A stretch of 41,387 bases of DNA from Arcobacteraceae bacterium (GTDB taxonomy: Bacteria > Campylobacterota > Campylobacteria > Campylobacterales > Arcobacteraceae): assembly GCA_048268245.1 (NCBI GenBank), contig JBLWVX010000021.1, positions 1 to 41,387 on the forward strand. The letters are read 5' to 3'. Shown here piece by piece: positions 19,045-33,683 of the stretch. The notes under the pieces are model-generated. The model was not told where the DNA came from, searched no databases, and worked only from the letters and a program-made list of their open reading frames with translations. The first letter of the stretch is position 1; each line of letters starts with the position of its first letter. The position numbers were made by a program, and so were the translations under genes.

Positions 19045-19045
19045 T

Positions 19046-19480
19046 TTAATAAAGCTCCTCGCAAACTTTTTTGGGTTTAATACAAGAAAAAATAGAGTTT
19101 TCTAACTCAAATAATACTTCATCACTACTATTTAAAATAAATACATACTCTTTGGAACTTTTTTTATACCAATGAGCTTTTTGTTTTAAAGTTTGATTTG
19201 TTGATTTTACTGGATATTGTAAAACTTTTGAGAAAAGTTTTTCATCTTTTGTCATAATTGAAGCATCATCCAACTTATCAACTTCATCATAGTTGTTTTG
19301 TAAAACTCTTTGTTTTTTTAAGTTTGTAATACCATTTTGAATAAGAGCAATATCTGCTTTTAATTTTGTAAGATTTGTATTTTGATTTATTAAATCAAAT
19401 TTTGATACTGCAAAACTTAATATAATTGAAACTATTAATATAACTATAATAATTTCTAAGATTGAAAAGGCTTTCTTCAT
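19046..19480 (-). CDS. Prepilin/pseudopilin-type protein (type IV pilin N-terminal methylation motif)
   Basis: MKKA|FSILEIIIVILIVSII class III signal peptide; C-terminal Cys pair. Confidence 0.8.
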   Translation of the reverse strand: MKKAFSILEIIIVILIVSIILSFAVSKFDLINQNTNLTKLKADIALIQNGITNLKKQRVLQNNYDEVDKLDDASIMTKDEKLFSKVLQYPVKSTNQTLKQKAHWYKKSSKEYVFILNSSDEVLFELENSIFSCIKPKKVCEELY

Positions 19481-19689
19481 TAAAACCTTGCTAATTTTTC
19501 TGAAATTTGTTCAACCTCTTTTTTGAAAGTTGAATACTCTTGTGTAATTCTAATATAAGCAGCTAATAAATCTTTTGTATTATTCTCTTTTTCTAGCTCT
19601 AAATATTTTGTTAGTTGTTGTTCCATCTCTTCATCAACATTGATAGTATATGCCATGTGATTAATATAAAATGTAATCTCTTTATTCAC
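19480..19689 (-). CDS. Small protein, ZapA-like (inferred)
   Basis: Two N-terminal beta-strand-like segments (EITFYIN, AYTINV), a helix, then a coiled coil; overlaps both neighbours. Confidence 0.5.
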   Translation of the reverse strand: MNKEITFYINHMAYTINVDEEMEQQLTKYLELEKENNTKDLLAAYIRITQEYSTFKKEVEQISEKLARF

Positions 19690-19882
19690 TTCTTCGTGCC
19701 TTCGTTAATGTTAAAGTACTATCAATTCTTAGAAACATATCTTGATTATTACGTATTAATTCGTCATTATCATTTTTAAGAATTTCTAACTCTTGTTTTA
19801 AAGACTGGTTCTCTAATTTCAGTCTTTCATAATCATGTAAAATTTTATCAAGCTTAGTATTTAATGTCTCTATTATTTCCAT
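19682..19882 (-). CDS. Small coiled-coil protein, ZapB-like (inferred)
   Basis: Continuous heptad pattern (LNTKLDKIL...LKLENQSLKQELEILK...L...RIDSTL). Confidence 0.5.
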   Translation of the reverse strand: MEIIETLNTKLDKILHDYERLKLENQSLKQELEILKNDNDELIRNNQDMFLRIDSTLTLTKARRSE

Positions 19883-19888
19883 AATGAG

Positions 19889-19897
19889 ATTTTATCA
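19889..19897 (-). promoter_or_regulatory. Extended -10 (TGaTAAAAT) 6 nt before the ATG at 19882; probable leaderless start
   Basis: Minus strand reads TGATAAAAT-CTCATT-ATG; no SD. Confidence 0.55.
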
Positions 19898-19932
19898 AAA
19901 GTTTCCTACTAAGAAAGTTTAAAGAATTATAG

Positions 19933-20346
19933 TTATGCTTCTTTTTTATCATTTATAAATATTTTTGCTACTTGATATAACATGGCTACTGATTTACCCC
20001 ATTGGGAAAAATCGTCAGCATCTTCTAAAGAAATATCAAATTTACTACAAATATTTTTTATTAACTCTTTTTCATTTATATCAAAGTTATTATCAATATG
20101 AATTAATATCATAAGTTCTAAAAGTACTATTTTTTGGCTTTTCTTTGATTTGAAATCATTTAAAATAGTTTCTAAACAAAAACTATTTTCATCAAACATG
20201 TCGATATTATCAATACCCATTTCAGAACAATATTCTAAAATTATCTCTTCTTCTTTTTCACCAAAACTTTTATCAATTCTTGCCAAATAATGAGCAAGTT
20301 GTAAAAATGAAAATTTCTCTTTTGTTTCTAATTGCATTAATAGCAT
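19933..20346 (-). CDS. TerB-like protein
   Basis: Two repeats of the (A/I)xxD..F...E..(I/L) pattern (LARIDKSFGEKEEEII; LIHIDNNFDINEKELI). Confidence 0.75.
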   Translation of the reverse strand: MLLMQLETKEKFSFLQLAHYLARIDKSFGEKEEEIILEYCSEMGIDNIDMFDENSFCLETILNDFKSKKSQKIVLLELMILIHIDNNFDINEKELIKNICSKFDISLEDADDFSQWGKSVAMLYQVAKIFINDKKEA

Positions 20347-20570
20347 ACGAATACCTATTTTTAAATATATTAATCTAATTAATTGTATTAATTAAAAGTT
20401 AATAGTTTATAAATGATTTCCTATATATCCCTTAAAGACAATTTTTTATAAGCTTTTAATTTTAAATTTTTATATATTTTATCCATAAAATTGTATTTTA
20501 ATAATTTTTGAAATGATTTTGCAATGGCTTTTATGTAATATTTGTGTAATGTACGCATAAAGGAGACAAA

Positions 20571-23500
20571 ATGACACTTGCAAAGTTAAAATTGCTATTA
20601 CTTCCAATAATAGCTGTTTTTATATTGAGTGCTTGTGGTGGTGGAGAGACAACCTCTAGTGGTGAACAAACTACAACACAAGAAACAAACTTTAGTGAAA
20701 TTAAAAATGTTGAATCAGTTGAAAAACTATCTACATCTTTAAAAGCACTAAATATAAATACAACACAAGAACTAGCTTCTGAACTAGAAAAGAATGACCC
20801 TCTTGAAGTATTTATAAAACTAAAAGAACAAGATGACTCTTTAAAATCTGAAGACATGTTAAATATGATGAAAGATTTAGAAAAAGAGATTGTTTTAAAA
20901 CCTTTACTTGATGATAAAAAGATATCAGATAAAGCTTTTAAAAGTTTAGAAACTATTAATAAAAGTGTTACGGAACTAAAAGAGACTACTTTAAGACAAA
21001 TTAATACTTTTGATAAAAATGAAGTAATCCCAGAAGAAGTAAATGAAGAGTATATTAAACAACAATTAATAGCTTATAACAATGAAATAGGTGCTTATGG
21101 TGAAGAGCCACTTACTTTAGAAGAGTTTAAATCTTTAAGAAATGCAGTTGATAAAATAGAACCTGTATTTAGTATGATTAGAACTTCTTTGCAAAATGTT
21201 GAAGCACAAACAACTACAACTAAAAAAGCTAGATATTTTTCTAAAGCTGTTATAGATAATTCTAAAAGAAAAATATTAAATGAAGTAGATGAAAATATTG
21301 GTGCTATAAAAAAAGCCCCAACTGCATATTTAAACTACAAACCAAATATCTATCAATCTTGTAAAGTCACTAAACAGACTTATCCTTTACAACTTATGGG
21401 TAAAAAAGAAAAAATATCTGAAGAGACTTTTGAAATCATTGCTTATGAAGATATAGAAATGAACCCCTCTTTTTTAAAAGATGTTGATGATAAAAGATCT
21501 TTTCAATTAAATAAAAAAGGTTTAGCGCAGATTGAAGTTAGAAATAAAAGTAATGAAGTTTATACTTTTGAAATAGACCACTACGATAATACAATAGTTT
21601 CAGTAGAGATTCCTGCATTACAGAGTAAAAAGATTTATCTACCAATTTTTCAAGAAGATGTATGTGTTCCTTATTTAGTAGATAAAGACGATGAAAATAT
21701 TGAGCTTTTTGTAAATGATATAAAAGAATCTAAAAAGATGCAAAGAGTTGTAAATGAACAAAACGGCTCTTATAATTTTGAAGTAACTCATACAACAAAT
21801 GATAACTTAGATTACTTTCCTGAAGCGAAATTATACGAATTTAGTTTATCGAAAAGAGATGATTTAAACTCTTTTGTATCACAAATAGACATAATTAATG
21901 CAAATGAAGTAGCGAGAGAAATAGTTTTACTAAAGTCACCTTCTGGTAAATTCTACCAATCTATCAATACTATGCAATCAGTACCAAGAGAAACAGGAAA
22001 ATGGCAACTATTAGTATTTGCTTCACACACTTTAATTGCTGATGAATTTTCATTTATAAATGAAGATAAAAGAATATCACATATACCTGTAGTAAATAAA
22101 TTTAATGACAATACTCAAAACAACTCTTATAAATTATCTATTCACACAGGTGAGCGATCACAAAGAAAGAAATTTATTGTTGCTGAGATGAAGAATGCAG
22201 AGTTTTCAAAAGATGGAGAGGATGATGGTAATCCAGGAGAAGTATCACTTTCACTTCATACAAATATGGCACCAAAACTAGAATTAGGAGCAGATATTAA
22301 TGCTCAGTTTGGAGATAAAAAGTCATATAAAGCTTATGAGTGTTGGGTTGATAATACAAAAGATGCTAAAGCTTTTAATGAAAACCAAGCTTGTAGTGAT
22401 CAAAAAGAGAGCTTAGAACAATTACTTTATGAGTTCTTCACAAAAGAGTTTCAATCTAATAACTTTGATAATATACAAATAAAAGCACTACTTTCTGCAA
22501 ATTATAATAACTTAAACCTAAGACAAAATATTCTTTTTTGGTATGATAGAGAGTTTAAAAATAGGCTAAATGATTATAACTTTAATTTACTATTTAATAC
22601 TTACAAAAATATTTATGATAACTGGCAAAATAATGTTGTGCAAATCAATGATATGCAATATCCATTTGGAGCAAATTATCAAATAAAAGACTCTTTTGTA
22701 TCAACTAAAAACAATAACCAAGGTGCTTTAATCAGAGTAGTTGATGACTATATGAATCCTATAATTCCAACTAATATTCCAATTCTTGCCTTATCAAAAG
22801 ATAGAATGGCTAAATCAACTCTTCCTATAGCTTTCCAATATTCAGCTTTAGAAGATGATGAAGTAAGTAAAGGTTTACAAATTTGGGCAGTTACAAAATA
22901 TGTACTAAATCAAGCACTAGCAGTTGCAACAGGAAATTTTGCTGGACTTGTTTGTAATACTGTAAATACAATGAAAGAGTTAAGAAAAATTGAGAGAGAT
23001 GGAGATGATGATCCAATTGGTGAAGCTGATTTCTTTTTAAATAGATACTCAACTGCAGACCAATTCTATGGTTTACAAAACAGTAATCTTGACTTCTCAA
23101 TTTCAGGGAATGCAACAATTCCAAACAACTATACATCTTTTGATAAAGGTTTAGATAAAGCATCTATTGGATGTAGTATATATGGTGCTGTTACAACTGG
23201 TGTAAGTTTATATAATTCAGTTGATAACTTAATCAATGGTGATGCAAACTTTTTAAATGCTTTAAATGAACAAAAAGACAATCTTATTGCTCAACATGGA
23301 GCAAATAGTGAACAAGTGGTTAACTTCACAAATGCTATGAATGATATTATAAATCAAAGAGCAAATGCTGAAACATTTAATGATTTATATAAAATCTTAA
23401 ACATGACCTCAACATACTCAAATGGTGTAGATATATATGACAGAATTGAAGAGATTAAAGACAAAATTGGAGGTCTTGGTTCACAAGGTCATAATACAAT

Positions 23501-26500
23501 GAGATCTGAAGCAAACTATTACTTCTCAAGCTTTGATCAAAGAAAAACAAGAAGTAATATTACAGTAAAAGAAGTTGATGGATTACCAGTATTAAAAACT
23601 AAAGTTACATTAACTAAAGTACATATTTATAATAATAAAGAAGATGGAAACGCTGAAGTTCAACTAAAAACTAGAGTTGGTGTTATTTCTGATTCTAATC
23701 CAACATATAGTGATGAGCTATCTTCAACTGCACCATATAAACTTAATGGAGAATTAGTTATGGATAATGGTTCAAAAGGGTATAAAACATTACCTAACTT
23801 ACCATTTAAAGGTTATATATTAAGATCAAAATATTTTAAAAAAGTAAAAGATAACCAACTACTAAATCTAGGTACTGGTCTTAACATGTATGAAGCAACT
23901 TATCCTGCTGAAAATAAAAGTGCAGCCTTTTATATAGAGATTGGTTTACATGAAAATGATGGTGATACTGTTGATGATGATATGATTGGTGTATTTTCAA
24001 AAACTTTTTACTTAGAAGACTTATATAATTATAATGCAAACTTCAAATGGTCTCATAGTGGTAATACTCATACTCTTAGTGTAAGTGATTTCCCTATTTA
24101 TGATGCTAATAATCTACAAACTTCAGTGGAGCTTATTGACCAAGAAAGAAGAACTAAACAGTTAGAACATAATGAACATGTTCTAAGTTATCCAAGTGCT
24201 ACAATTTCATTTACAGTAGAGATTGAAGAAGGTGATTATTCAGATAATATTCCAACTGAAATTTCTGATGATTTAATACCTATTGAAGAAGGTTCATTTG
24301 AAGATTATGAAAAAGACAATATTAACTTACAAGAAGTTTCATCTTTAATAACTTCACAAAATAGTAAATCAAAAGTTTTTGACATATTTAAAAATAATCT
24401 TTTAGTTCATGATGGTGACTCTACGCTAAAGATTGTATCTTATAATGAGCATAAAAAACTTCAACTAGAAAAAACTATTAACTCAAATGAACTTAATGGT
24501 GACTATAAGTATTTATTAAAAGATAGAAAACTTCCATACATGAATACACTTAGAAATATAAACTTTATTGATGAGAATCATATTCTTGTATTCTATAGTC
24601 AAATAGATGCCACAGCTAGTACAACTATGGCAGTTATTGATTTAAGAACTAATACTATAGTAAATAACCAAAGTATTGCAGCAAATACAAATCACCTTAC
24701 AGTACAAAGAATAAATGAACATTTATTAAGAGTTTTCTCAATTATTCCAAGTTCAACAGCCAATTCTGGTATTATAGAGACATATGAAGTTAATGCAAAT
24801 TCAATTCAGAAACTTGCAACTAAAAACATTAATTCTATCCCTTATGAATTACTTGTATTAGACAATGATAATCTACTACTAAAATCTTATAATATAGTTA
24901 AGAAAAGTGCAGATACATGGGCTCATAAAAAAAGATTCTATACATTCTATAAACTTGAAGATAATCAGCTAATAGAGACACAACTATATCAAGATAATTT
25001 AAATATTTCTGATACAAATATGAGTATTGACTATATACAATCTTCTGATAAAAGAGCTATGTATAATATAAACCATAGTAACTTTAATAGAATCATATCA
25101 CATGAGAAATGGTCTAATAAAAACTATTTCAAAAAACTTATCTATAACTATGAGAGTAAACAGTATAGATTTACTCAAGAACAGCCATATAGTACATATA
25201 TGCAAGACTATCTTATTCAAAATGAAAAATATGGGTTTACAGTTAAGAAAAATTTAGAACCTTATGATAGTAAAGCTACTAGATTAAGATTTAATGCAAA
25301 AGCAACAGAAATAACTTCATCATTTGATTCAATTAATAAACTTACTTTTTTAGATGAAAGGTATTTATTAATAGAGGGTAGCAGAAATAATGGAAACAAT
25401 GGTATAAAAATTCTTGATACTCAATATGCTCTACCAATATTAGACTTTGATAAAAAAGGATTACAAGAAGTTAAAAAGAATACTCATTTAAATCTAAGAA
25501 GTGTTCTTACAAATAATCCAAATGATGAAACACTAAGTTATAAATGGTATTACAAAAAAAGTAATGAGTATGAGAAACAAGAAGCTGGAAATGAAGATAC
25601 TTTCTCTCATTCATTTAGTATAAATGGTGATTATATTGTATTCTTAGAAGCAACTACACTTGCAGGAGAGGTTCTAAAAAAACAAATAGAAGTAAAAGTT
25701 ATTTCAACCCCTGATATAAATACTCTTCCAGAAGTTACACTAACTCCTTTAAGTAAAGAAATTAATTTAGGTCAAGGAGTATCATTTACAGCAACTGCTA
25801 CAGATGAAGATGATGATATTTTAAAATATGAATGGTCTGTTCAAAAAGATAATGGTACTCCTGTAGTATCAATAGGAAGTAACACATTCTATAAACAATT
25901 CTCTCAAACAGGAGATTATAAAGTTACATTAAAAGTAATTGATACACAAGGTGCTTATACAGCTAAGACTGCAAATATACTTGTTACAAAAGCATCTTCT
26001 GTTGATTATACTTTAACTGAAAGAAATGCTACAGTTAAAAATAAAGAAGTAGTTCATATTAATGTTGGTTATTCAGGGAATGCTATAAATATCTATGAAC
26101 AGCCTAAACATGGTGAAATTGAACTTTATTCAATTGGTGGAGAAGAAGGAGCCTTTAAATATACAAGTACAGATTGTTTTGAAGGAGAAGATACTTTCTC
26201 TTATGCTTATAACAATGAATATGGACTTGTAAAAGTAGATGTACAAAGTTATATAGAAGATTTCACTGTTAAAAATATAAATAAAAAGGTTTATGCAAAT
26301 GAATCTATTAGTGGGGAGATTGATACTACTAGTAATGTAAGAATTATAAGACAAGCTCAAAATGGTGTAGCTACAGTTACAAATAGACCTAGACAAAATG
26401 CACTATTTGAATATACTCCAAATAAAAAATTTGAAGGTAATGACTATATTGTATTTGCTGTAACAAAAACTCATGGTACTTGTTCTAAAGAAGTTACTGC

Positions 26501-29500
26501 AAGAATAAACTTTGAAGTAAAAGAAAACTCTGCACCTAGTGTAAACCTTACACCAGCTGATAAAACAATCAGTCTATTCCAATCTATTACATTTAATGTA
26601 GTTGCAAGTGATATGGAAGATGAAGAGAGTTTACTAAGGTACAAATGGTCTATAAATAAAAATAATGAAGGTGCACAAGCACTTAAAAATCTTTCTTCGA
26701 CATACACTAAAAAGTTTAATGAAGAAGGAATATATGACATTTCTGTTGAAGTAACTGATACTAAAAATGAGACTACTAAAAAAACTACAAGAATAACTGT
26801 AGAAAAATCTCCTGTATCATATACTCTAATAGAAAGAGTTGCCAATATTAAAAATAAAGAAGAGACTCATATTATAGTTGGTTATCACGGTGATGATATA
26901 AATATCTATGAACAACCAAAACATGGACAAATCGAGCTTTATTCAATTGGTGGAGAAGAAGGTGCATTTAAATATACAAGTACTGATTGTTTTGAAGGTC
27001 AAGATACTTTCTCTTATGAATTTAACAATGAATATGGTTTAGTAAAAGTAAATATTCAAAGCCCTATTAATGATTTTACATTAGAAAATATACAAAGGGA
27101 GATAGTAAACACTACTACTTTACAAGAAGAAGTAAATACTTTAGGAGATATTAGTTTATCTACAAATGCTCAAAATGGAAAAGTTGATCTAATAAATATA
27201 AGTGGAAGGAAACCTGTGTTTATTTATACTCCAAGCTCAAACTTCATAGGTGATGACTACTTTGAATATACTATTACAAAAGAACAAGATGGTTGTTCAA
27301 AACAAGTAAGTGCTAGAGTTGATATAACTGTAACTGGTATTCCTCAAAAGAAAACAAAACTAATTGCTATGTGTCAAGACCCATATAATATTGGTAAAGA
27401 GTTATATAAAACTGATGGTACAAAAGATGGGACAAGTTTAGTGAAAAATATAAATTGGAGTAAAAACAACTCTAATATTTATATCCCAGAGAATACAAAA
27501 CTTGGTGATACTCAATACTTTGTAGAAAGAAATAGTGGATATAAAGCTGAACCTTGGTCAACACAAGGAAGTGATGCTGATACTCAAGTACATGAAATAA
27601 ATACAAATAATTCATTTAACGCTGCAAATTTATATGGTAACTCAAACCCATCAAACTTTGTAAAGTTTGATAATCATATATTCTTTACAGCTTCAAACAA
27701 TGGATTTGCTGATTATGGACTTTATATTATTGATGAAAATAAAAACTTTACTAGGATTGCTAATACTGTTGGTTTTAGGTATAAAGTACTAAACAATAAA
27801 CTAAACTTTATGTATGAAAATGGAAATAATATTCAAATCCAAAAAGTTAATTCTTCTTTAGATGGAATTGAAACTATTCATACATTTACAAACCATGATA
27901 CTGGTTCATTAGCTGATTATAGTAATACTTTTACAAATATTGATGATAAACTAATATTCTCTTTAAGAGATGAGAATCCATCATCACCGCTTACTGGGCT
28001 TTCATTATACTCATTAGTTGAAGGAAATGAGCCAATTAGATTAAGTACAATTTATCAAGTAAATAATTATGCTCAAGATTTAGTAAAAGCAAATAATAAA
28101 GTTTATGTTATTTCAGATAAAACTGGTGATAACTCAACACAAGCAAGAGAAATATTAGAAACAGATGGAACTAAAGATGGAACTAGATCTATTTTAACAA
28201 TGAGTGATAAATTTAGAATCAATAACCTTGTTTCTGCAAATAACAAGCTTTATTTCAGAGCAGTTGAAAATGTTGAAGCTAGTTCATATGATAAACATCA
28301 CTTATATGAATATGATTTAGAAAATAGCTTACTTAATGTAATTTATAGTTTTCAGACTATAGGAGCACAAGATAGTATTAGTGAAATAACAACTTTTGAA
28401 AATAAAATTTTATTTACAAAAAGAGTTACAATTGATGGAAAACTTGAAGAAAAACAGTTTGTTAGTGATGGTACATCAGCTAATACAATTATGTATTTAG
28501 ACAATAAAAACCAAGAAGATTTAAAAGCTCCATATATTTTAAACAATAAGTATTTCTTTGAGAATACAATGGGAGAACTTTACGAAACAGACTTTACATT
28601 AGAAGGTACAGAAAAAGTAATTCCTAATACTTGTGATATTTATCCTGATTCATTTAGCTTTATAGATGTAAATAGTTCAGAACTTGATACACTACATGAA
28701 GATTCTATAACTGTAGAAGGTATCAACTACCCTGAAACAAAAGTATCAATCTCAGGTAATGGTGAATATTCACTAGATAACAAACTTTCATGGACAAGTG
28801 AAGAATCGACAGTAGGTAATGGTCAAGAGATATGGGTTAGATTAAGAAGTTCAAACAGCTATAATACAACTGTAAGTACAACTTTAAATGTTGGAGAAAG
28901 AAGTGATACTTTCTCTATAAAAACAAAAACTGAAGCTTTAGATATACCTGATAAATTTACATTTACAGATGTATCTGATGTTGAATTAAACAGTGTTCAA
29001 ACTGCTAGTGTTACAATTACAGGAATTAATGTTCCTGTAAATCTAACAATAAATGATGGTGATTCACAATACTCACTTGATAATGGAATAACTTGGAGTA
29101 ATAGTAATACTACCGTTGAAAACAACCAAACCATACTTGTAAAACACACTAGTGCTTCAAGCTATAAAGGCTCAGCAACTACAACTTTAAAGGTTGGGGG
29201 AGTAAGTGATATTTTTGATTCAACAACAAAAGCAGAAGTACAAAATATAGAAAATGTTGTAACAAAAGGAAATTTAATGTGGGAAGATACATCTCATGTT
29301 AAAACAGAAATCCCAACTTGGTTTATGGCAAATGCATATTGTCAAGACCTTGAATTAGGTGGCTTTACAGATTGGAAAATTCCAAGTCTAGAAGAAGGTA
29401 ATACAATCCAAGTTGCAGGACTAACAATTAATTATGAACCATATACTCAAGAAAATCAATATGATGAACCATATCCAGATAGTATAACTATAGCTGATGA

Positions 29501-29684
29501 CTTTGAGTCTATTATTCAAAGTGAAGAAATTGCTATTTGGACAACTACAAATAACATTGATGAAACAGGAGCACCAATACCTCATGCTTATAAATTGACT
29601 GCTTTCTATGGCAAAAAAGATAATTTTGATATAAGAGCACAAGATGATGGTGGATATGTAAGATGTGTAAGAGATATAGAATAA
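20571..29684 (+). CDS. Giant 3037-aa modular surface lipoprotein (C2-like domains, propeller, PKD/Ig repeats, ELWxxDGT repeats, DUF1566/Lcl C-terminus)
   Basis: AAGGAG SD; lipobox ILSAC-GGG; PKD-like units (SYKW...F...GDY.V.L); Big_9-like units (P.HG...FKYT...FEG.DTFSY); ELYKTDGT/EILETDGT repeats; terminal LMWED...W..A..YC..L.LGGFTDWKIPS..E...YVRCVRD. Confidence 0.9.
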   Translation: MTLAKLKLLLLPIIAVFILSACGGGETTSSGEQTTTQETNFSEIKNVESVEKLSTSLKALNINTTQELASELEKNDPLEVFIKLKEQDDSLKSEDMLNMMKDLEKEIVLKPLLDDKKISDKAFKSLETINKSVTELKETTLRQINTFDKNEVIPEEVNEEYIKQQLIAYNNEIGAYGEEPLTLEEFKSLRNAVDKIEPVFSMIRTSLQNVEAQTTTTKKARYFSKAVIDNSKRKILNEVDENIGAIKKAPTAYLNYKPNIYQSCKVTKQTYPLQLMGKKEKISEETFEIIAYEDIEMNPSFLKDVDDKRSFQLNKKGLAQIEVRNKSNEVYTFEIDHYDNTIVSVEIPALQSKKIYLPIFQEDVCVPYLVDKDDENIELFVNDIKESKKMQRVVNEQNGSYNFEVTHTTNDNLDYFPEAKLYEFSLSKRDDLNSFVSQIDIINANEVAREIVLLKSPSGKFYQSINTMQSVPRETGKWQLLVFASHTLIADEFSFINEDKRISHIPVVNKFNDNTQNNSYKLSIHTGERSQRKKFIVAEMKNAEFSKDGEDDGNPGEVSLSLHTNMAPKLELGADINAQFGDKKSYKAYECWVDNTKDAKAFNENQACSDQKESLEQLLYEFFTKEFQSNNFDNIQIKALLSANYNNLNLRQNILFWYDREFKNRLNDYNFNLLFNTYKNIYDNWQNNVVQINDMQYPFGANYQIKDSFVSTKNNNQGALIRVVDDYMNPIIPTNIPILALSKDRMAKSTLPIAFQYSALEDDEVSKGLQIWAVTKYVLNQALAVATGNFAGLVCNTVNTMKELRKIERDGDDDPIGEADFFLNRYSTADQFYGLQNSNLDFSISGNATIPNNYTSFDKGLDKASIGCSIYGAVTTGVSLYNSVDNLINGDANFLNALNEQKDNLIAQHGANSEQVVNFTNAMNDIINQRANAETFNDLYKILNMTSTYSNGVDIYDRIEEIKDKIGGLGSQGHNTMRSEANYYFSSFDQRKTRSNITVKEVDGLPVLKTKVTLTKVHIYNNKEDGNAEVQLKTRVGVISDSNPTYSDELSSTAPYKLNGELVMDNGSKGYKTLPNLPFKGYILRSKYFKKVKDNQLLNLGTGLNMYEATYPAENKSAAFYIEIGLHENDGDTVDDDMIGVFSKTFYLEDLYNYNANFKWSHSGNTHTLSVSDFPIYDANNLQTSVELIDQERRTKQLEHNEHVLSYPSATISFTVEIEEGDYSDNIPTEISDDLIPIEEGSFEDYEKDNINLQEVSSLITSQNSKSKVFDIFKNNLLVHDGDSTLKIVSYNEHKKLQLEKTINSNELNGDYKYLLKDRKLPYMNTLRNINFIDENHILVFYSQIDATASTTMAVIDLRTNTIVNNQSIAANTNHLTVQRINEHLLRVFSIIPSSTANSGIIETYEVNANSIQKLATKNINSIPYELLVLDNDNLLLKSYNIVKKSADTWAHKKRFYTFYKLEDNQLIETQLYQDNLNISDTNMSIDYIQSSDKRAMYNINHSNFNRIISHEKWSNKNYFKKLIYNYESKQYRFTQEQPYSTYMQDYLIQNEKYGFTVKKNLEPYDSKATRLRFNAKATEITSSFDSINKLTFLDERYLLIEGSRNNGNNGIKILDTQYALPILDFDKKGLQEVKKNTHLNLRSVLTNNPNDETLSYKWYYKKSNEYEKQEAGNEDTFSHSFSINGDYIVFLEATTLAGEVLKKQIEVKVISTPDINTLPEVTLTPLSKEINLGQGVSFTATATDEDDDILKYEWSVQKDNGTPVVSIGSNTFYKQFSQTGDYKVTLKVIDTQGAYTAKTANILVTKASSVDYTLTERNATVKNKEVVHINVGYSGNAINIYEQPKHGEIELYSIGGEEGAFKYTSTDCFEGEDTFSYAYNNEYGLVKVDVQSYIEDFTVKNINKKVYANESISGEIDTTSNVRIIRQAQNGVATVTNRPRQNALFEYTPNKKFEGNDYIVFAVTKTHGTCSKEVTARINFEVKENSAPSVNLTPADKTISLFQSITFNVVASDMEDEESLLRYKWSINKNNEGAQALKNLSSTYTKKFNEEGIYDISVEVTDTKNETTKKTTRITVEKSPVSYTLIERVANIKNKEETHIIVGYHGDDINIYEQPKHGQIELYSIGGEEGAFKYTSTDCFEGQDTFSYEFNNEYGLVKVNIQSPINDFTLENIQREIVNTTTLQEEVNTLGDISLSTNAQNGKVDLINISGRKPVFIYTPSSNFIGDDYFEYTITKEQDGCSKQVSARVDITVTGIPQKKTKLIAMCQDPYNIGKELYKTDGTKDGTSLVKNINWSKNNSNIYIPENTKLGDTQYFVERNSGYKAEPWSTQGSDADTQVHEINTNNSFNAANLYGNSNPSNFVKFDNHIFFTASNNGFADYGLYIIDENKNFTRIANTVGFRYKVLNNKLNFMYENGNNIQIQKVNSSLDGIETIHTFTNHDTGSLADYSNTFTNIDDKLIFSLRDENPSSPLTGLSLYSLVEGNEPIRLSTIYQVNNYAQDLVKANNKVYVISDKTGDNSTQAREILETDGTKDGTRSILTMSDKFRINNLVSANNKLYFRAVENVEASSYDKHHLYEYDLENSLLNVIYSFQTIGAQDSISEITTFENKILFTKRVTIDGKLEEKQFVSDGTSANTIMYLDNKNQEDLKAPYILNNKYFFENTMGELYETDFTLEGTEKVIPNTCDIYPDSFSFIDVNSSELDTLHEDSITVEGINYPETKVSISGNGEYSLDNKLSWTSEESTVGNGQEIWVRLRSSNSYNTTVSTTLNVGERSDTFSIKTKTEALDIPDKFTFTDVSDVELNSVQTASVTITGINVPVNLTINDGDSQYSLDNGITWSNSNTTVENNQTILVKHTSASSYKGSATTTLKVGGVSDIFDSTTKAEVQNIENVVTKGNLMWEDTSHVKTEIPTWFMANAYCQDLELGGFTDWKIPSLEEGNTIQVAGLTINYEPYTQENQYDEPYPDSITIADDFESIIQSEEIAIWTTTNNIDETGAPIPHAYKLTAFYGKKDNFDIRAQDDGGYVRCVRDIE
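26085..27050 (+). repeat. Intragenic direct repeat, 26085-26237 and 26898-27050 (813-nt period)
   Basis: 47 of 51 aa identical (INIYEQPKHG.IELYSIGGEEGAFKYTSTDCFEG.DTFSY..NNEYGLVKV); part of a duplicated PKD-Ig-Ig unit. Confidence 0.9.
28644..29230 (+). repeat. Two tandem Ig-like repeats of about 101 aa (PD.F.F.DV...YSLDN...W...T.L.VG..SD.F...TK)
   Basis: Repeat starts at 28644 and 28947 (303-nt period), visible at the protein level. Confidence 0.8.
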
Positions 29685-29709
29685 AGTAGAGGACAAAGCC
29701 TCTACTTTA
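29682..29709. terminator. Hairpin shared by the convergent giant gene and response regulator
   Basis: TAAAGTAGAGG-acaaag-CCTCTACTTTA perfect 11-bp inverted repeat; both stop codons form the base of the stem. Confidence 0.75.
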
Positions 29710-30390
29710 AATATTAATTCTATACCCAACTCCTGAAATTGTTTCTAAAAATTTATAGTTTAATTTAGCTCTTAATCTACCAACAAGAGTTCTTCTTGTA
29801 TTTTCATTTGGCAACTTATCAGGCCAAATTTCATTTTCCATTTCATATATAGAAACTATTGAATTATTTGCTTTTATTAAAAGATATAAGAGTTGTAATT
29901 CCCTTTTTGTTAGATGAATATTTTCTCCTCTAAAAATCAACTGATTTGCTTTTATATCAAAACTGAATTCATCATCAAACTTTACATCCCCTACTCTTTG
30001 CTTTTTATTTACTCTATTTTTCTCATAAGATAAATCTGCCATTTTTAAAGACGCAAAAAGCTCGCTTTTATTAAAAGGTTTTACTAAATAAGAACTTGGT
30101 TCTGTTTTTATTGCTCTAGTTATAGTTGTTTCATCACTAAAAGCAGTAAGATATATAATAGAAGTATTAATTTCTTCTTTGATAATACTAGCGGTATCTA
30201 TACCATCAATATCACCTTTTATTCTAATATCCATCATAATAATATGAGGTTTAAACTCTATAGCTTTTTCAACTGCATCTTTAAAGTTATTTGTAATTGC
30301 TACTACTTCATAATCAAGGTATTCTAAATAAGAGGATAACTCCATAGCTACAATACTCTCATCTTCAACTATCATAATTGGTATTTTCAT
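29707..30390 (-). CDS. Response regulator (receiver plus winged-helix DNA-binding domain)
   Basis: IVEDE, MMDI, YLTA and YLVKPF; C-terminal LTKRE..LL..L...IW...RLRAKL...ETISGVGYRI. Confidence 0.92.
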   Translation of the reverse strand: MKIPIMIVEDESIVAMELSSYLEYLDYEVVAITNNFKDAVEKAIEFKPHIIMMDIRIKGDIDGIDTASIIKEEINTSIIYLTAFSDETTITRAIKTEPSSYLVKPFNKSELFASLKMADLSYEKNRVNKKQRVGDVKFDDEFSFDIKANQLIFRGENIHLTKRELQLLYLLIKANNSIVSIYEMENEIWPDKLPNENTRRTLVGRLRAKLNYKFLETISGVGYRINI

Positions 30391-32126
30391 ATTCTAAACC
30401 TTATATCGTATTCACACACACCATCTAAGTTAATATCTATAGTTCCATCTAGTTGTACTGAAACTAAGTTTTCAACTAACTTTAATCCTAATGACTTTTG
30501 ACTAATACTCTCTTTTTTATAACCATTCCCTCCATCTTTAACTTCTAAGAAATAATCATAGTGTTTAAAATAAAGTTTTATTGAAATATCATTAGAATTA
30601 GAATACTTTATGCTATTTGTAATCAATTCATTTATTATAATTCCAAGATAAACAGCATATTTTAGTGGCATTTTAACTTCTGTTTGTATATCAATATTTA
30701 AGTGTTTTAAATAAGAGCTTTCAATATCTTCACAAAGACTATAAATATACTCATACATATCAATATTTTCAATATCATCATTTAGATATAAAATTTCATG
30801 TGTTTTAGATATAGATTTAATTCTACTCTCTAATTTTAAAAACTGTTCTTTTACATCCTTTGATGAGCTCTTTGTTCCTTGAAGTCTTATAATAGAAAGT
30901 ATAATTTGAAGATTGTTTTTAACTCTATGATGAAGTTCTCTATATAAATCTTTTAAAAGTTTTGTTCTTAAAGCCACTTTTGATTCTATAATTTCATTTC
31001 TTTGTTTTAATTCATCTAAAAGTTTTTTATTTATTTCATTTTTTTCTTTTTGTAAGATATTTAGTCTATCCACAAAAGCTAAAAGTAAAAAGAAGGCCTC
31101 AAATATAGTCAAAACAAGCACTAAACTTGGGAAATAATACATAAGTGAGTAAATACCTAAAGCATCTATGATACTAAAGAAGAAACCTATAATTACAAAA
31201 CTCCAACCAGCTATAAAAAATCTTGCTTGTTTATTTCCCTTTTTATAAATATATATGGCAACAAATAAATTATAAAAAATAAAAATAAGTCCTGTAATTA
31301 CAATAAATTCAGGATAATAAAACCAAGGTGTTGATAAGAAAAAAATTTGAATTATTGATATAAAAACTAGTAGCTTATAAACGCTATCAATTTTTCTATA
31401 ATTTGCTGTTTTTAAAAAACTCCTTGCAAAAAATATAGCAGCAATAATCATCAAACCAACTTTAGGAATAACTGCTAAATTATCCCAATAAGTAAATGGT
31501 GTAGGCATATACAAAGGTAAAAAACCAACATATGTTAACTGTTGAAATACTAAAGCTAAAATATAACCAACATAAATAATATAGCTTTTATCTTTTGTAT
31601 AAAAATATAATCCTAAGGCATAGATTACAAAAGCACCTAAAAACCCTATACATAAAATAATAGTAAATTGTCTCTTTTTATCTTTACTTAAAAACTCTTC
31701 TTTATCAACTAAGGAAATAGTAAATTGCAAGGATGTTGTAGAGTTTTGAACTTTTAGATATGCAATAGTTGAATTTAAACTATTTAAATCAAAACTTGCA
31801 GTGATACTATTTTTAGGGTATGTTATTCCAGTAGTCTTTATTAAATTAAAGTTTTCGTTATAAAGCTCAATTTTTTCTAATAAAGGGTTGTCTATTTCTA
31901 AAAGTTTATTACTATTTTTATCAATAAAAAACTTCAACCAAATTGTAGTGCCTTTTACAAAACCTAAATTTATATGCCTTGTGTTTAAGCTTTTAAACTC
32001 TTTTGTTTTAATTTGATTTAAAGATAAATCCTTTTTATCAATATAAATTTGAGTATTTGATAAATAATCTGCATGAAGAATATTGTAAAATAAGAAAAGT
32101 ATGATAAAAAAGTGCGTTTTTTTCAT
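30387..32126 (-). CDS. 7TM-DISM sensor histidine kinase (HisKA_2 type)
   Basis: Signal peptide, DISMED2-like domain (NLGF....WLKF...LEIDNPLLEKIELY), 7 TM helices, RELHHRVKNNLQ, NELITNSIKY, KDGGNG and SLGLKLV. Confidence 0.9.
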   Translation of the reverse strand: MKKTHFFIILFLFYNILHADYLSNTQIYIDKKDLSLNQIKTKEFKSLNTRHINLGFVKGTTIWLKFFIDKNSNKLLEIDNPLLEKIELYNENFNLIKTTGITYPKNSITASFDLNSLNSTIAYLKVQNSTTSLQFTISLVDKEEFLSKDKKRQFTIILCIGFLGAFVIYALGLYFYTKDKSYIIYVGYILALVFQQLTYVGFLPLYMPTPFTYWDNLAVIPKVGLMIIAAIFFARSFLKTANYRKIDSVYKLLVFISIIQIFFLSTPWFYYPEFIVITGLIFIFYNLFVAIYIYKKGNKQARFFIAGWSFVIIGFFFSIIDALGIYSLMYYFPSLVLVLTIFEAFFLLLAFVDRLNILQKEKNEINKKLLDELKQRNEIIESKVALRTKLLKDLYRELHHRVKNNLQIILSIIRLQGTKSSSKDVKEQFLKLESRIKSISKTHEILYLNDDIENIDMYEYIYSLCEDIESSYLKHLNIDIQTEVKMPLKYAVYLGIIINELITNSIKYSNSNDISIKLYFKHYDYFLEVKDGGNGYKKESISQKSLGLKLVENLVSVQLDGTIDINLDGVCEYDIRFRI

Positions 32127-32193
32127 TAATACAACTTTATATTTATAATATAAAATTATACTAAATTATAAATAATACATATATTAGAAATAC

Positions 32194-32226
32194 TAATTTA
32201 GTAGCAAATAAGTTGCTACTAAATTA
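32194..32226 (-). terminator. Terminator-like hairpin after livF
   Basis: TAATTTAGTAGCAA-ataag-TTGCTACTAAATTA 14-bp inverted repeat directly after the stop codon. Confidence 0.7.
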
Positions 32227-32227
32227 T

Positions 32228-32923
32228 TTAAGCACCAAGATATTTTGCTCTAATATCATCAGAGTCTATAAGTTCACTACCTTTTCCTTCAAGTGCTATC
32301 TCACCATTTTCTAAAACATAAGCATAATCAGAGATTTCTAAAGCTGCAAAGGCATTTTGTTCAACTAATAAAATTGTAATACCTTCATCTCTTAATTTTT
32401 CAATTGTTTGAAATAACTCACCTACAATTTTTGGAGCAAGTCCAAGTGAAGGTTCATCTAGCATAAGAAGTTTTGGGCTTGACATTAAAGCTCTAGCAAT
32501 TGCTAGCATTTGTTGTTCCCCTCCACTCATAGTTCCTGCTAACTGACCTTTTTTTGATACAAGTCTAGGGAATAGTTTAAACATATGCTCTAATAACTCT
32601 TCATATTTACTATCATTATTAAAAGCACCCATTCTAAGATTTTCTTCAATTGTTAAGTTTTGAAAACATCTTCTTCCCTCTGGAACAAGTGCAATATGAC
32701 TTTGTATAATCTTATGAGTTTTCATCTTTGAAATATCATTATCTACATATACAATACTTCCAGTTTTTTTAACATCATTTACGATTGATTGTAATGTTGA
32801 AGTTTTACCTGCACCATTACTTCCAATAAGTGAAACAATTTGTCCCTCACCTACTTCAAAGTCAATACCTTTTACTGCATTTATTAATCCATAATATACT
32901 TTTAAATCTTTTACTTTAAGCAT
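32228..32923 (-). CDS. livF: Branched-chain amino acid ABC transporter ATPase
   Basis: GSNGAGKT, VPEGRR, MSGGEQQMLAIARALM, LDEPSLGLAP and LVEQNA. ATG at 32923 has a GGAGA SD. Confidence 0.92.
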   Translation of the reverse strand: MLKVKDLKVYYGLINAVKGIDFEVGEGQIVSLIGSNGAGKTSTLQSIVNDVKKTGSIVYVDNDISKMKTHKIIQSHIALVPEGRRCFQNLTIEENLRMGAFNNDSKYEELLEHMFKLFPRLVSKKGQLAGTMSGGEQQMLAIARALMSSPKLLMLDEPSLGLAPKIVGELFQTIEKLRDEGITILLVEQNAFAALEISDYAYVLENGEIALEGKGSELIDSDDIRAKYLGA

Positions 32924-33683
32924 GTTTAAAATCTCCAAGGTAAGCTTTTATAACTTCTTCATCTTTGATGGCATCTTTAATATCACCTTCAAAAATAGTT
33001 TTCCCATAATCAAGAACCATAACTCTATCACAAAGTTTATTTACAAATTTCATATCATGTTCAATCAATAAAATCGTAACATCAAACTCATCTCTAATCT
33101 TAAAGAAAAGCTCTGCTAATTCATGTGTTTCTTGGGGGTTCATACCTGCTGCTGGTTCATCTAAAAGTAGAAGTTGTGGAGCTGCTGCTAAGGCTCTTGC
33201 TATCTCTACTTTTCTTTGCTGACCATAAGATAATGATGTAGACATTTCATTTGCAAACTCTGCAATGCCTAAAACTTCCATAATCTCGAAAGCTCTTTTT
33301 CTAATTCGTCTCTCTTCTAAGAAAAATCTTGGAAATCTAAGCATCGCTTCAAGATATGAATATGAAGCTTGATAATCAAAACCAATTAAAACATTATCTA
33401 AAACACTCATCGAGTTAAATAATCTAATATTTTGGAAAGTTCTTGCAATTCCTCTATGTACAATCTTATGTGGCTTTATACCATTTAAAGTTTGTCCATG
33501 GAACTTAATAGAACCTTCAGTTGGTTCATAATTTCCTGTAATGATATTAAACATAGTAGTCTTACCAGCTCCATTTGGACCAATAAGACCATAAATTTCT
33601 TTAGAATTTACATGAAAAGAGGTGTCTTTTATAGCAGTAACTCCTCCAAATTTCTTAGTTACGTTACATACTTCTAAAATCAT
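32916..33683 (-). CDS. livG: Branched-chain amino acid ABC transporter ATPase
   Basis: FGGVTA, GPNGAGKTT, ARTFQNIRLF, LSYGQQR, LDEPAAG, IEHDM and VIKAYLG. Confidence 0.92.
   Translation of the reverse strand: MILEVCNVTKKFGGVTAIKDTSFHVNSKEIYGLIGPNGAGKTTMFNIITGNYEPTEGSIKFHGQTLNGIKPHKIVHRGIARTFQNIRLFNSMSVLDNVLIGFDYQASYSYLEAMLRFPRFFLEERRIRKRAFEIMEVLGIAEFANEMSTSLSYGQQRKVEIARALAAAPQLLLLDEPAAGMNPQETHELAELFFKIRDEFDVTILLIEHDMKFVNKLCDRVMVLDYGKTIFEGDIKDAIKDEEVIKAYLGDFKHA

Follow-up and report, generated by a model that had tools for sequence, protein, structure and literature searches.

A predicted dedicated two-component switch with a PhoB-like promoter for a giant lipoprotein gene in an Arcobacteraceae bacterium

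Does a two-component system encoded tail-to-tail with the gene for a very large lipoprotein control that gene, and what would such a switch deploy? This question is raised by a locus in an Arcobacteraceae bacterium (Campylobacterota; NCBI GenBank assembly GCA_048268245.1). Within the stretch of DNA analyzed here (contig JBLWVX010000021.1, positions 1 to 41,387 of the forward strand; 41,387 nucleotides in all, in the following termed the window), three genes for a giant lipoprotein, a response regulator and a sensor kinase are flanked by the operon of a liv-type ABC importer on one side and a small TerB-like gene on the other. An earlier note, prepared from the sequence without database searches, had interpreted them as a coupled sense-and-attach module in which the kinase induces a long tethered adhesin or a contact-dependent effector. 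Our analysis leads us to consider it likely that the gene for the giant surface lipoprotein, most likely a long-reach adhesin, is under the control of a dedicated two-component switch that acts through a PhoB-like activator promoter. The regulatory link from the pair to the giant gene is strongly supported in silico; from the same material we infer the sign of the regulation (activation as opposed to repression), the signal, and the lipidation, export, surface exposure and adhesive function of the product.

The giant gene (20571..29684, plus strand) is an open reading frame of 3037 residues, preceded by the ribosome-binding site AAGGAG (20560-20565, plus strand) 5 nt before the ATG. It converges on the regulator gene (29707..30390, minus strand; 227 residues, OmpR/PhoB type) and the kinase gene (30387..32126, minus strand; 579 residues, 7TMR-DISM/HisKA_2 type), which overlap each other in an ATGA. 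A terminator-like hairpin with an 11-bp stem (29682..29709), predicted to serve both strands, covers both stop codons; its folding energy of -15.9 kcal/mol corresponds to a z value of -4.9, with equally good folds in none of 200 shuffles. Hairpins of different sequence occupy the same position at three other convergent loci (z -4.5, -3.7 and -1.65). In agreement with the earlier note, open reading frame and translation yield a 3037-residue protein with the lipobox ILSAC, Pfam matches and coordinates establish its convergence with a 7TM-DISM HisKA_2 kinase and a regulator with receiver and winged-helix domains, and a single hairpin is shared by the two transcription units. The name terB, given there to the neighboring gene, had to be given up, as its TerB match stays below the threshold (21.2 bits vs. 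a cut-off of 24.4 bits).

Within the genus, the three genes are present or absent together as a single 11.8-kb indel, which answers the question that the earlier note had put to a comparison of terB-livF synteny. In four out of five same-genus genomes (G001-G004) the slot is empty and the distance from livF to the TerB-like gene amounts to just 118-128 nt, while in the fifth (G005) no livF orthologue was recovered with the query used. Homology at the DNA level between the window and the empty-slot genomes ends at 20346-20417 and restarts at 32227, from which the block size of ~11.8 kb follows. The block sits between the promoter region of the TerB-like gene and the livF terminator hairpin (32194..32226, minus strand; identified in a hairpin scan), which constitutes its right edge and is retained; a similar hairpin is located inside the short livF-terB intergenic region of the empty-slot relatives. 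The junctions of the block exhibit no target duplication, and neither an integrase nor a tRNA gene was noticed in the adjoining genes that were scanned, although no dedicated tRNA scan was made.

With regard to the occurrence of the kinase, orthologues (54-63% identity, E<=1e-120) were detected in 10 of 184 genomes of the family. All ten exhibit the order livF-kinase-regulator-cargo-terB, the cargo gene encoding more than 2000 residues. Independent occurrence of the pair without a large surface gene, which the earlier note had named as an observation that would speak against its proposal, was thus not encountered among orthologues of at least 54% identity in these 184 genomes. The cargo falls into three classes. 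Class 1 (G000, i.e., the genome of the window, as well as G113 and G176) is the giant family of the window; G113 and G176 share gene order and operator with loci L042 and L044 and may be the same genomes. Class 2 (G010 and G024) comprises a different lipoprotein of 3128 and 2083 residues, respectively, featuring He_PIG, FG-GAP or Shr-like domains and two DUF1566 domains, that has only ~95-residue Ig-like repeats and DUF1566 in common with the giant of the window. Class 3 (G112, G124, G128, G132 and G195) is a five-gene operon present in other genera downstream of the predicted operator (e.g., L081:5541-18651 in G132; also L077-L080, L082 and L083) coding for a ~275-residue CARDB protein, a ~525-residue protein with a weak DUF2490 match, a secreted protein of ~2700 residues for which Pfam returned no match, a ~644-residue fn3 protein and a ~190-residue lipoprotein. 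Judged from these comparisons, the conserved unit is made up of kinase, regulator and predicted operator, with the giant as exchangeable cargo from three unrelated classes. Of the coupled module originally proposed, the functional coupling of the pair with the giant gene is therefore supported by the indel, the gene neighborhood and the operator, whereas a fixed three-gene unit is not, since the cargo behind the operator is exchanged.

The same picture emerged when the giant protein served as the starting point. No match to its residues 1-1650 was present in 40 related genomes, while large protein collections contained 11 relatives of 2185-3050 residues with 36-40% identity over this region; PF07603 (Lcl_C/DUF1566) was found in 8 of the 11, and the middle parts vary. 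An exhaustive HMMER search with residues 480-1660 against 1.84 billion representatives retrieved 35 proteins at E<=0.001, including that of the window. By these sequence matches the giant is a member of a rare family that has no name. Conservation peaks at residues 520-1200, where up to 65% of the other sequences match the query per 50-residue window, and collapses after residue 1650; a lipobox-like motif occurs in 22 of the 32 members that exceed 1500 residues. Eight distinct close-relative loci (43-53% core identity) were distinguished, namely the window, L042, L044, L045/L050, L043/L049, L046, L047 and L048. Kinase and regulator adjoin the giant in seven of them, with three arrangements spread over at least three genomic contexts. 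The convergent arrangement next to livF is exemplified by the window, L042 from a metagenome-assembled genome (MAG) of Halarcobacter sp., L044 from the MAG of an uncultured Arcobacteraceae bacterium and L045/L050, and a co-directional order kinase-regulator-giant is found in other contexts in L043/L049 (Sulfurimonas sp. MAG), L047 and L048; Pfam assigned 7TMR-DISM and HisKA_2 to the kinases of L043 and L048. More distant relatives of the giant (28-31% identity; L051-L057) have no adjoining pair where the flanks are visible. A further piece of the giant family (47% identity, two open frames) was noted on a 4.6-kb contig (L041) of a Candidatus Gracilibacteria MAG that is too short to judge the neighborhood; the host assignment may be a binning artefact, as the hosts of the family are otherwise of Campylobacterota type.

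Further evidence that ties the pair to the giant gene is found in the promoter of the latter. Comparison of genomes and loci revealed a tandem direct repeat, TTGAAATG-ATT-TTGCAATG, with a period of 11 bp (20508..20526, plus strand), which is predicted to be the operator of the regulator and is followed after 9 nt by a predicted -10 hexamer, TAATAT (20536..20541, plus strand), derived from an alignment of 16 promoters. The aligned loci comprise nine of class 1 (including L046 and the distant L051), two of class 2 and five of class 3. All 16 share TTGCAAYG-N3-TTGCAAYG, a distance of 9 nt and then TAnnnT, with flanks and spacers otherwise unconserved; positions T1, A2 and T6 of the hexamer are invariant, and 40-52 nt separate the end of the repeat from the start codon of the cargo gene (44 nt in G124). 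No -35-like hexamer could be read from the promoter alignment 16-18 nt upstream of the -10 box. Promoters activated by PhoB are characterized by direct repeats with an 11-bp period located about 10 bp upstream of the -10 hexamer and by the lack of a -35 element. Regulators of the OmpR/PhoB family bind tandem direct repeats about one helical turn apart; the putative operator is a conserved 8-bp direct repeat with an 11-bp period. It is present in front of the giant genes at all close-relative loci at a fixed distance to the -10 box, including L046, where the giant gene retains it without a kinase gene nearby. At co-directional loci, it resides in the gap between regulator and cargo genes, which measures 69 nt in L043, 80 nt in L048 and roughly 90-240 nt in others.

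The predicted operator also appears to be specific for this gene. Positions 20508-20526 are the sole exact match to TTGNAAYGNNNTTGNAAYG in the 2.68-Mb genome, and the window contains one match compared with 0.08 expected from shuffles. The best one-mismatch match in the same genome lies inside an RND pump gene, and no match was present in G001-G003, which do not contain the system. Among the 184 genomes of the family, the pattern was matched 11 times as opposed to zero times for a reversed control; five of these matches are intergenic, all of them cargo promoters, and six are intragenic. A second match in G010, found with a looser pattern only, is likewise intragenic. The operator was not seen upstream of the kinase gene. 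A generic sigma-70 scan yielded 77 sites vs. 90.6 in shuffles and, showing no excess, was left unused.

Beyond the family, an order-level sample of 401 genomes contained ten further genomes with kinases at 38-48% identity. Class 3 cargo together with the repeat occurs in other families of the order (G378, G221 and G532), and the repeat directly follows the regulator gene in G378, G221 (two sites), G213 (two sites), G331 and G387, the contig of the last ending at the operator. As searches with up to three mismatches also match coding sequence, e.g., inside livG, the position before the cargo was relied on in such cases. Two serial copies of the operator, each before a small gene, were noted in other families (L083:13640 and 14333 as well as L084:265 and 878, all on the minus strand), which suggests that regulons of more than one promoter are possible in these genomes.

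The two regulatory proteins are of well-defined types. In the kinase, Pfam recognizes 7TMR-DISMED2 (residues 26-140), 7TMR-DISM_7TM (153-354), HisKA_2 (397-472) and HATPase_c (494-565); the scores for PF07696 (44.4 bits, cut-off 22) and PF07695 (106.8 bits, cut-off 29) identify it as a 7TMR-DISM receptor. It is not a hybrid of the RetS/LadS type, as HisKA_2 (85.5 bits) and HATPase_c are followed by the end of the protein at residue 579 and no Response_reg match was obtained. The regulator consists of Response_reg (residues 5-115; PF00072, 76 bits) and Trans_reg_C (155-225; PF00486, 50.9 bits), which places it in the OmpR/PhoB family; its best NCBIfam matches, MtrA, VanR and PhoB, all score far under the equivalog cut-offs. 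Candidate acidic pocket and phospho-acceptor residues are contained in VEDE, MMDIRI, YLTA and VKPF, which were read by eye without a reference alignment. The region of the recognition helix, NTRRALVSRLR, conforms to a pattern (NTRRxLVxRLR) common to the regulators beside operator-bearing promoters, and regulators without the operator differ; because the regulator sequences are related, this agreement counts as weak evidence. Among G000, G010 and G024, identities of kinase and regulator are symmetric (58-67%) and those of the liv genes amount to 82-93%. The symmetry fits an old pair in the slot with repeated loss and cargo exchange, transfer also being possible.

Several genes related to the pair or located beside it deserve mention in their own right. 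Distant 7TMR-DISM/HisKA_2 paralogues (30-37% identity) are encoded in L017, L019, L020, L021, L022 and L023 together with a regulator and a ~252-residue protein (beginning MININKN or MFNINKN), in what looks like a different three-gene module. In G022 (L029:9094-15402), a distant kinase paralogue and a divergent regulator are followed by a 1257-residue lipoprotein (FILSGCGGGTSSS), upstream of which no TTGCAAYG repeat was found. A ~400-residue receiver-domain-like protein (VLIVDDEDDVHSVTK) is encoded between kinase and livF in G024 (L015:11003-12214, minus strand), and a gene resembling it is located downstream of the operon cargo in G128 (L078:18790-19901, plus strand).

What kind of protein is it that would be deployed? 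All features of the giant are encoded on the plus strand. A signal peptide (20571..20636) ends in the lipobox ILSAC with Cys22 (translation AVFILSAC22GGG), which agrees with the consensus of bacterial lipoproteins, [LVI][ASTVI][GAS]C, and predicts lipidation. The adjoining N-terminal region (residues 23-1650; 20637..25520) defines the family. A piecewise Pfam scan found no family in it and specifically no C2 match, comparison of residues 1-1650 by sequence with PDB chains gave no match at E<=1, the C-terminal 360 residues likewise matched no PDB chain, and the ESM Atlas returned for residues 520-1260 and 1261-1650 unnamed clusters only, with scores of up to 0.90 and low recognition. The subsequent stalk (residues ~1631-2243; 25461..27299) is composed of PKD, Big_9 and cadherin-like Ig domains. 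On the whole protein, PKD_4 scored 72.1 bits and Big_9 60.2 bits, and the piecewise scan gave 92.6 bits for Big_9 over six stretches, 37.7 bits for Cadherin_5 and an additional weak PKD_4 at residues 1631-1708 (E 0.0033). A DNA repeat of 286 nt (25994-26279/26807-27092; 80% identical, 813 nt apart) confirms that the stalk includes a duplicated 271-residue unit. Further toward the C-terminus follow a region of ELWxxDGT-type repeats (residues ~2260-2690; 27348..28640), two Ig-like repeats of ~95 residues (residues ~2690-2890; 28638..29240) with an underlying DNA repeat (28857-28946/29160-29249), and a DUF1566/Lcl_C domain (residues 2900-3034; 29268..29672). The ~95-residue repeats recur in the class 2 giant of G010 (BLASTP, 45% identity over 109 residues, E 2e-20). 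For PF07603, the giant scored 38.2 bits piecewise and 37 bits in a genome search, and just 30.1 bits as a whole protein, against a cut-off of 34.9, such that membership is borderline. Two further DUF1566/Lcl_C domains in the same genome, in open reading frames of 142 and 162 residues (G000:C4:4655-4996 and G000:C10:72515-72880, both on the minus strand), score 75.6 and 70.4 bits, far above the tip of the giant.

The domain order given in the earlier note is borne out in several parts. The arrangement [PKD-Ig-Ig]x2 is corroborated by Pfam stretches and the DNA repeat, the two Ig repeats before the tip by the second DNA repeat and the match to the G010 giant, and the DUF1566 tip, though borderline, by the piecewise score. 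From the ELWxxDGT propeller postulated there, the repeats were recovered: TIGR04534 matched residues 2275-2303 with 45.8 bits (E 4.7e-12), which falls short of the cut-off of 65 for the whole protein and hence of a full-member score, and a regular expression located three D[GF]TxxGT sites at residues 2282, 2532 and 2674. The reported absence of RTX repeats, autotransporter barrels and adjacent secretion genes was also reproduced. Neither RTX (HemolysinCabind) nor autotransporter, two-partner secretion or other secretion families appeared among the Pfam matches of the giant and its neighbors, which sets it apart from RTX/type I adhesins of the LapA or SiiE kind with their adjoining export genes and from autotransporter and two-partner systems. 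No toxin, enzyme, effector or pore-forming family was matched in the giant.

The most conserved part of the family was modeled with AlphaFold2 in two segments. The model of residues 520-1260 (12 sequences, mean predicted local distance difference test score, pLDDT, of 50.5) is usable only for residues ~993-1225. It contains the second of two C2-like beta-sandwiches (residues ~1006-1227; 23586..24251; pLDDT 65-86), with the Asp-rich loop ENDGDTVDDDMIG. Alignment with VIA-align gave for this domain 4rj9_A (Z 9.9, root-mean-square deviation 3.6, 138 aligned residues), the C2A domains of otoferlin and myoferlin (both Z 9.9) and the perforin C2 domain (Z 8.5), and C2 domains account for nearly the entire top 50. 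The model of residues 520-1020 (34 sequences, mean pLDDT 64.6) features a beta-sandwich split by three helical insertions. This first C2-like domain (residues ~532-1006; 22164..23588) includes the loop ERDGDDDPIG (from residue 810) and aligned with 3w56_A (Z 9.0, root-mean-square deviation 2.8, 106 aligned residues) as well as with the C2 domains of cPLA2 (Z 8.8) and perforin (Z 8.1). A Foldseek search with the model of residues 520-1020 returned nothing at E<=0.001. Compared with a canonical C2 domain, an eight-stranded sandwich with Asp-rich Ca2+ loops, both assignments thus consist of VIA-align matches to models of limited mean pLDDT, next to empty Foldseek and Pfam C2 results. Of the two Asp-rich C2-like domains that had been claimed, the second is supported by the fold search and the first more weakly so; VIA-align delivered C2 matches, and Foldseek, which had been recommended, did not. 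The Asp-rich loops of the modeled sandwiches probably bind Ca2+. A helical hairpin within the first sandwich (residues ~763-881) aligns with helical hairpins of membrane proteins (Z 8.8; by the tool's own note, Z values below about 13 are uninformative for helical parts), and its residues ~767-811 are moderately hydrophobic (Kyte-Doolittle value 1.22 vs. 2.24 for the signal peptide).

Taken together, we propose the following course of events. The kinase would sense an extracytoplasmic cue via its DISMED2 domain, a glycan or Ca2+ being a guess by analogy. HisKA_2-type autophosphorylation would be followed by transfer of the phosphate to the presumably translationally coupled OmpR/PhoB-type regulator, which, as a head-to-tail dimer, would bind the repeat at 20508-20526. 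Located 9 nt from the -10 box, the occupied repeat would stand in for the -35 element and activate the giant gene, the apparent sole target in the genome of the window, and the shared hairpin would end both converging transcripts. The product would be lipid-anchored by Cys22, its conserved base including the two C2-like Asp-rich sandwiches would lie proximal to the membrane, and the variable PKD/Ig stalk and the repeat region would extend outward and present the DUF1566 domain as a lectin-like distal tip, making the protein a long-reach adhesin.

A number of observations weigh against this proposal, and alternatives exist for its regulatory part. The link between operator and regulator is drawn from position and conservation only, and the figure of 16 out of 16 promoters overstates independence because L044/L045, L043/L046 and G112/G132 form closely related pairs. 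In Campylobacterota, promoters frequently do without a -35 element, so that its absence here argues only weakly for dependence on an activator. Placed over the -35 region, an operator is equally compatible with repression, in that the regulator would block RNA polymerase until the signal arrives. The 9 nt between the end of the operator and the -10 box also suit such steric repression, and the sequence leaves the sign of regulation unfixed; however, tandem repeats with an 11-bp period about 10 bp from a -10 box without -35 constitute the classical layout of PhoB-activated promoters, and at co-directional loci the operator in the short regulator-cargo gap would act as the cargo's own inducible promoter, so we regard repression as unlikely. 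Pair, operator and giant are also not strictly inseparable: L046 carries the giant without kinase and regulator within about 8 kb, the distant giant relatives in L053, L054/L056 and L057 have neither pair nor operator, in G213 and G331 the repeat precedes ~180-residue secreted proteins, after which the contigs end, the kinase of G414 (40% identity) is accompanied by a 393-residue lipoprotein without repeat or giant, and neither repeat nor giant accompanies the kinases of G317, G351 and G401 (38-41% identity). One might then take the adjacency as incidental and the livF-terB gap as a mere landing hotspot without any regulatory link, in line with a slot that is empty in four of five same-genus genomes and holds three cargo classes elsewhere. 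That pair, operator and giant also occur together outside this slot (L043, L047 and L048), that the operator is unique in the genome and that the exact geometry precedes three unrelated cargo classes renders this explanation highly improbable.

As to the function of the giant, confidence in both structural models is low to middling, and, since the underlying model ends at residue 1020, one strand assigned to the first C2-like sandwich may in fact belong to the second domain. Instead of an adhesin, the protein could be a membrane-active or a particle- or nutrient-capturing surface protein with a Ca2+-dependent C2-like core that stalk and tip only deliver. It is indeed this core rather than the tip that is most conserved in the family, C2 domains including that of perforin (Z 8.1-8.5) are membrane-binding modules, and the helical hairpin resembles those of membrane proteins. 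Yet the hairpin is only moderately hydrophobic and its Z value lies in the uninformative range, no toxin, enzyme or pore-forming family was matched, and the core adjoins the lipid anchor, which puts it beside the cell's own membrane; we assign this possibility a low probability. To our knowledge, no route is available by which a lipoprotein of 3037 residues crosses the outer membrane, and no such export route is encoded near the giant gene. The giant could accordingly remain in the periplasm or face inward from the outer membrane, serving as a scaffold of the envelope or as a co-sensor feeding back on DISMED2, a scenario that the missing surface-export machinery next to the gene would favor but that we consider quite improbable, since stalks of PKD and Ig domains ending in a lectin-like tip typically reach into the extracellular space. 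Moreover, the genome encodes four secretin-family genes, which makes a type II-like route conceivable, by analogy with pullulanase. No match to Slam (PF04575) was found in the genome of the window, and control genomes were likewise silent, so this result is uninformative. A long-reach adhesin under the control of the adjoining pair remains our preferred interpretation.

Other ways of varying the giant or its expression were looked for in the DNA. No convincing inverted repeats, as expected for an invertible segment, flank the giant gene, and the region 20300-32230 contains no G/C run of at least 6 or A/T run of at least 10 that would suggest phase variation. DUF1566 is a known target class of diversity-generating retroelements; no template-like repeat of the 3' end of the giant gene was present in 19000-33000. 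Beyond the block, Pfam identified priA, a pilin-like gene, the TerB-like gene and the liv ABC importer as neighbors. The pilin-like gene (19046-19480, minus strand), located between priA and the TerB-like gene, encodes a protein of 144 residues whose N-terminus bears a prepilin-type methylation motif (TIGR02532, E 3e-4) and is kept at that position in relatives with or without the module. DNA near-identical to 20300-24300 of the window was noted in three oyster-metagenome runs of one study (0.35-0.67 of sampled words) and in an aquatic-metagenome run of another (0.32 of sampled words), no more than a hint at a marine or shellfish-associated habitat.

Several consequences follow if the proposal is correct. 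A 7TMR-DISM sensor gains a concrete and probably single output, i.e., one operator and one giant gene, and signal discovery for this poorly understood class of sensors is thereby reduced to a reporter assay. A single environmental cue would deploy whichever long-reach surface structure a lineage carries, and the retention of one regulatory input with a swapped displayed giant bears on how attachment specificity changes in marine and host-associated Campylobacterota. A rare family of giant lipoproteins that have a conserved C2-like base in common is defined, which raises the question of how a lipoprotein of 3000 residues reaches the surface. The tandem C2-like core with its helical insertions, as modeled, may represent a new Ca2+-dependent membrane-engaging base module for giant lipoproteins. 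In its widest form, the interpretation would be that kinase, regulator and operator constitute an "expression socket" into which three classes of giants have been plugged, with one cue deploying the current one and the C2-like core perhaps serving as a new base module. We are nearly evenly divided about this extended version, leaning slightly toward doubt.

No description of this locus or module was found in the limited collection of literature searched, while parts of it recall characterized systems. The closest parallel for the regulatory arrangement is BvgAS-fhaB of Bordetella, where the pair is likewise encoded beside a giant adhesin gene and binds repeats in the adjoining promoter. However, BvgS is a VFT/PAS hybrid kinase, BvgA is of NarL type, the regulon is large and FHA is two-partner-secreted, whereas the window combines a 7TMR-DISM/HisKA_2 kinase and an OmpR/PhoB-type regulator with apparently one promoter and an exchangeable lipoprotein cargo. 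The promoter resembles the pho box of PhoB, with direct repeats of 11-bp period replacing the -35 element and occupied by a winged-helix dimer, but differs in the half-site TTGCAAYG, in the type of kinase and the signal, and in having a single predicted target rather than a regulon. LadS and RetS from Pseudomonas share the DISMED2 and 7TMR-DISM module and control the switch to a surface-attached lifestyle, yet they are hybrid kinases that act via GacS/Rsm without a DNA-binding partner of their own, in contrast to the plain HisKA_2 kinase with an adjoining transcription factor described here.

With regard to the giant itself, Leptospira LigA and LigB are also large, N-terminally lipidated adhesins with tandem Ig-like domains and a distinct C-terminal part. 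These are built from Big_2 repeats, which the Pfam scans did not match in the giant, and do not possess a 1650-residue base, C2-like domains, a DUF1566 tip or an adjoining two-component pair. Lcl from Legionella pneumophila carries a DUF1566-containing C-terminal head of C-type-lectin-like fold at the end of a long surface stalk and binds sulphated glycosaminoglycans (PMC11162425). As described there, Lcl is a trimeric, collagen-like protein of ~42 kDa that is type II-secreted and held by an amphipathic helix (PMC11162425), whereas the window encodes a 3037-residue lipoprotein with an Ig/PKD stalk.

Control of giant adhesins by two-component systems is already known, and this kind of system is therefore not new. 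ArlRS-MgrA of Staphylococcus aureus reportedly controls giant surface proteins. In Aeromonas, one report states that the level of the very large adhesin MbpA is set by a sensor kinase that responds to GlcNAc, a mucin glycan (bioRxiv 10.1101/2022.07.25.501442). Both cases involve other families of kinases, regulators and adhesins, and what could be consulted about them describes no conserved adjoining operator-cargo module. What appears to be new in the locus presented here is the pairing of a 7TMR-DISM/HisKA_2 kinase and an OmpR-type regulator, a predicted operator that is unique in the genome, giant cargo exchanged within one slot and an unnamed protein family with a C2-like core.

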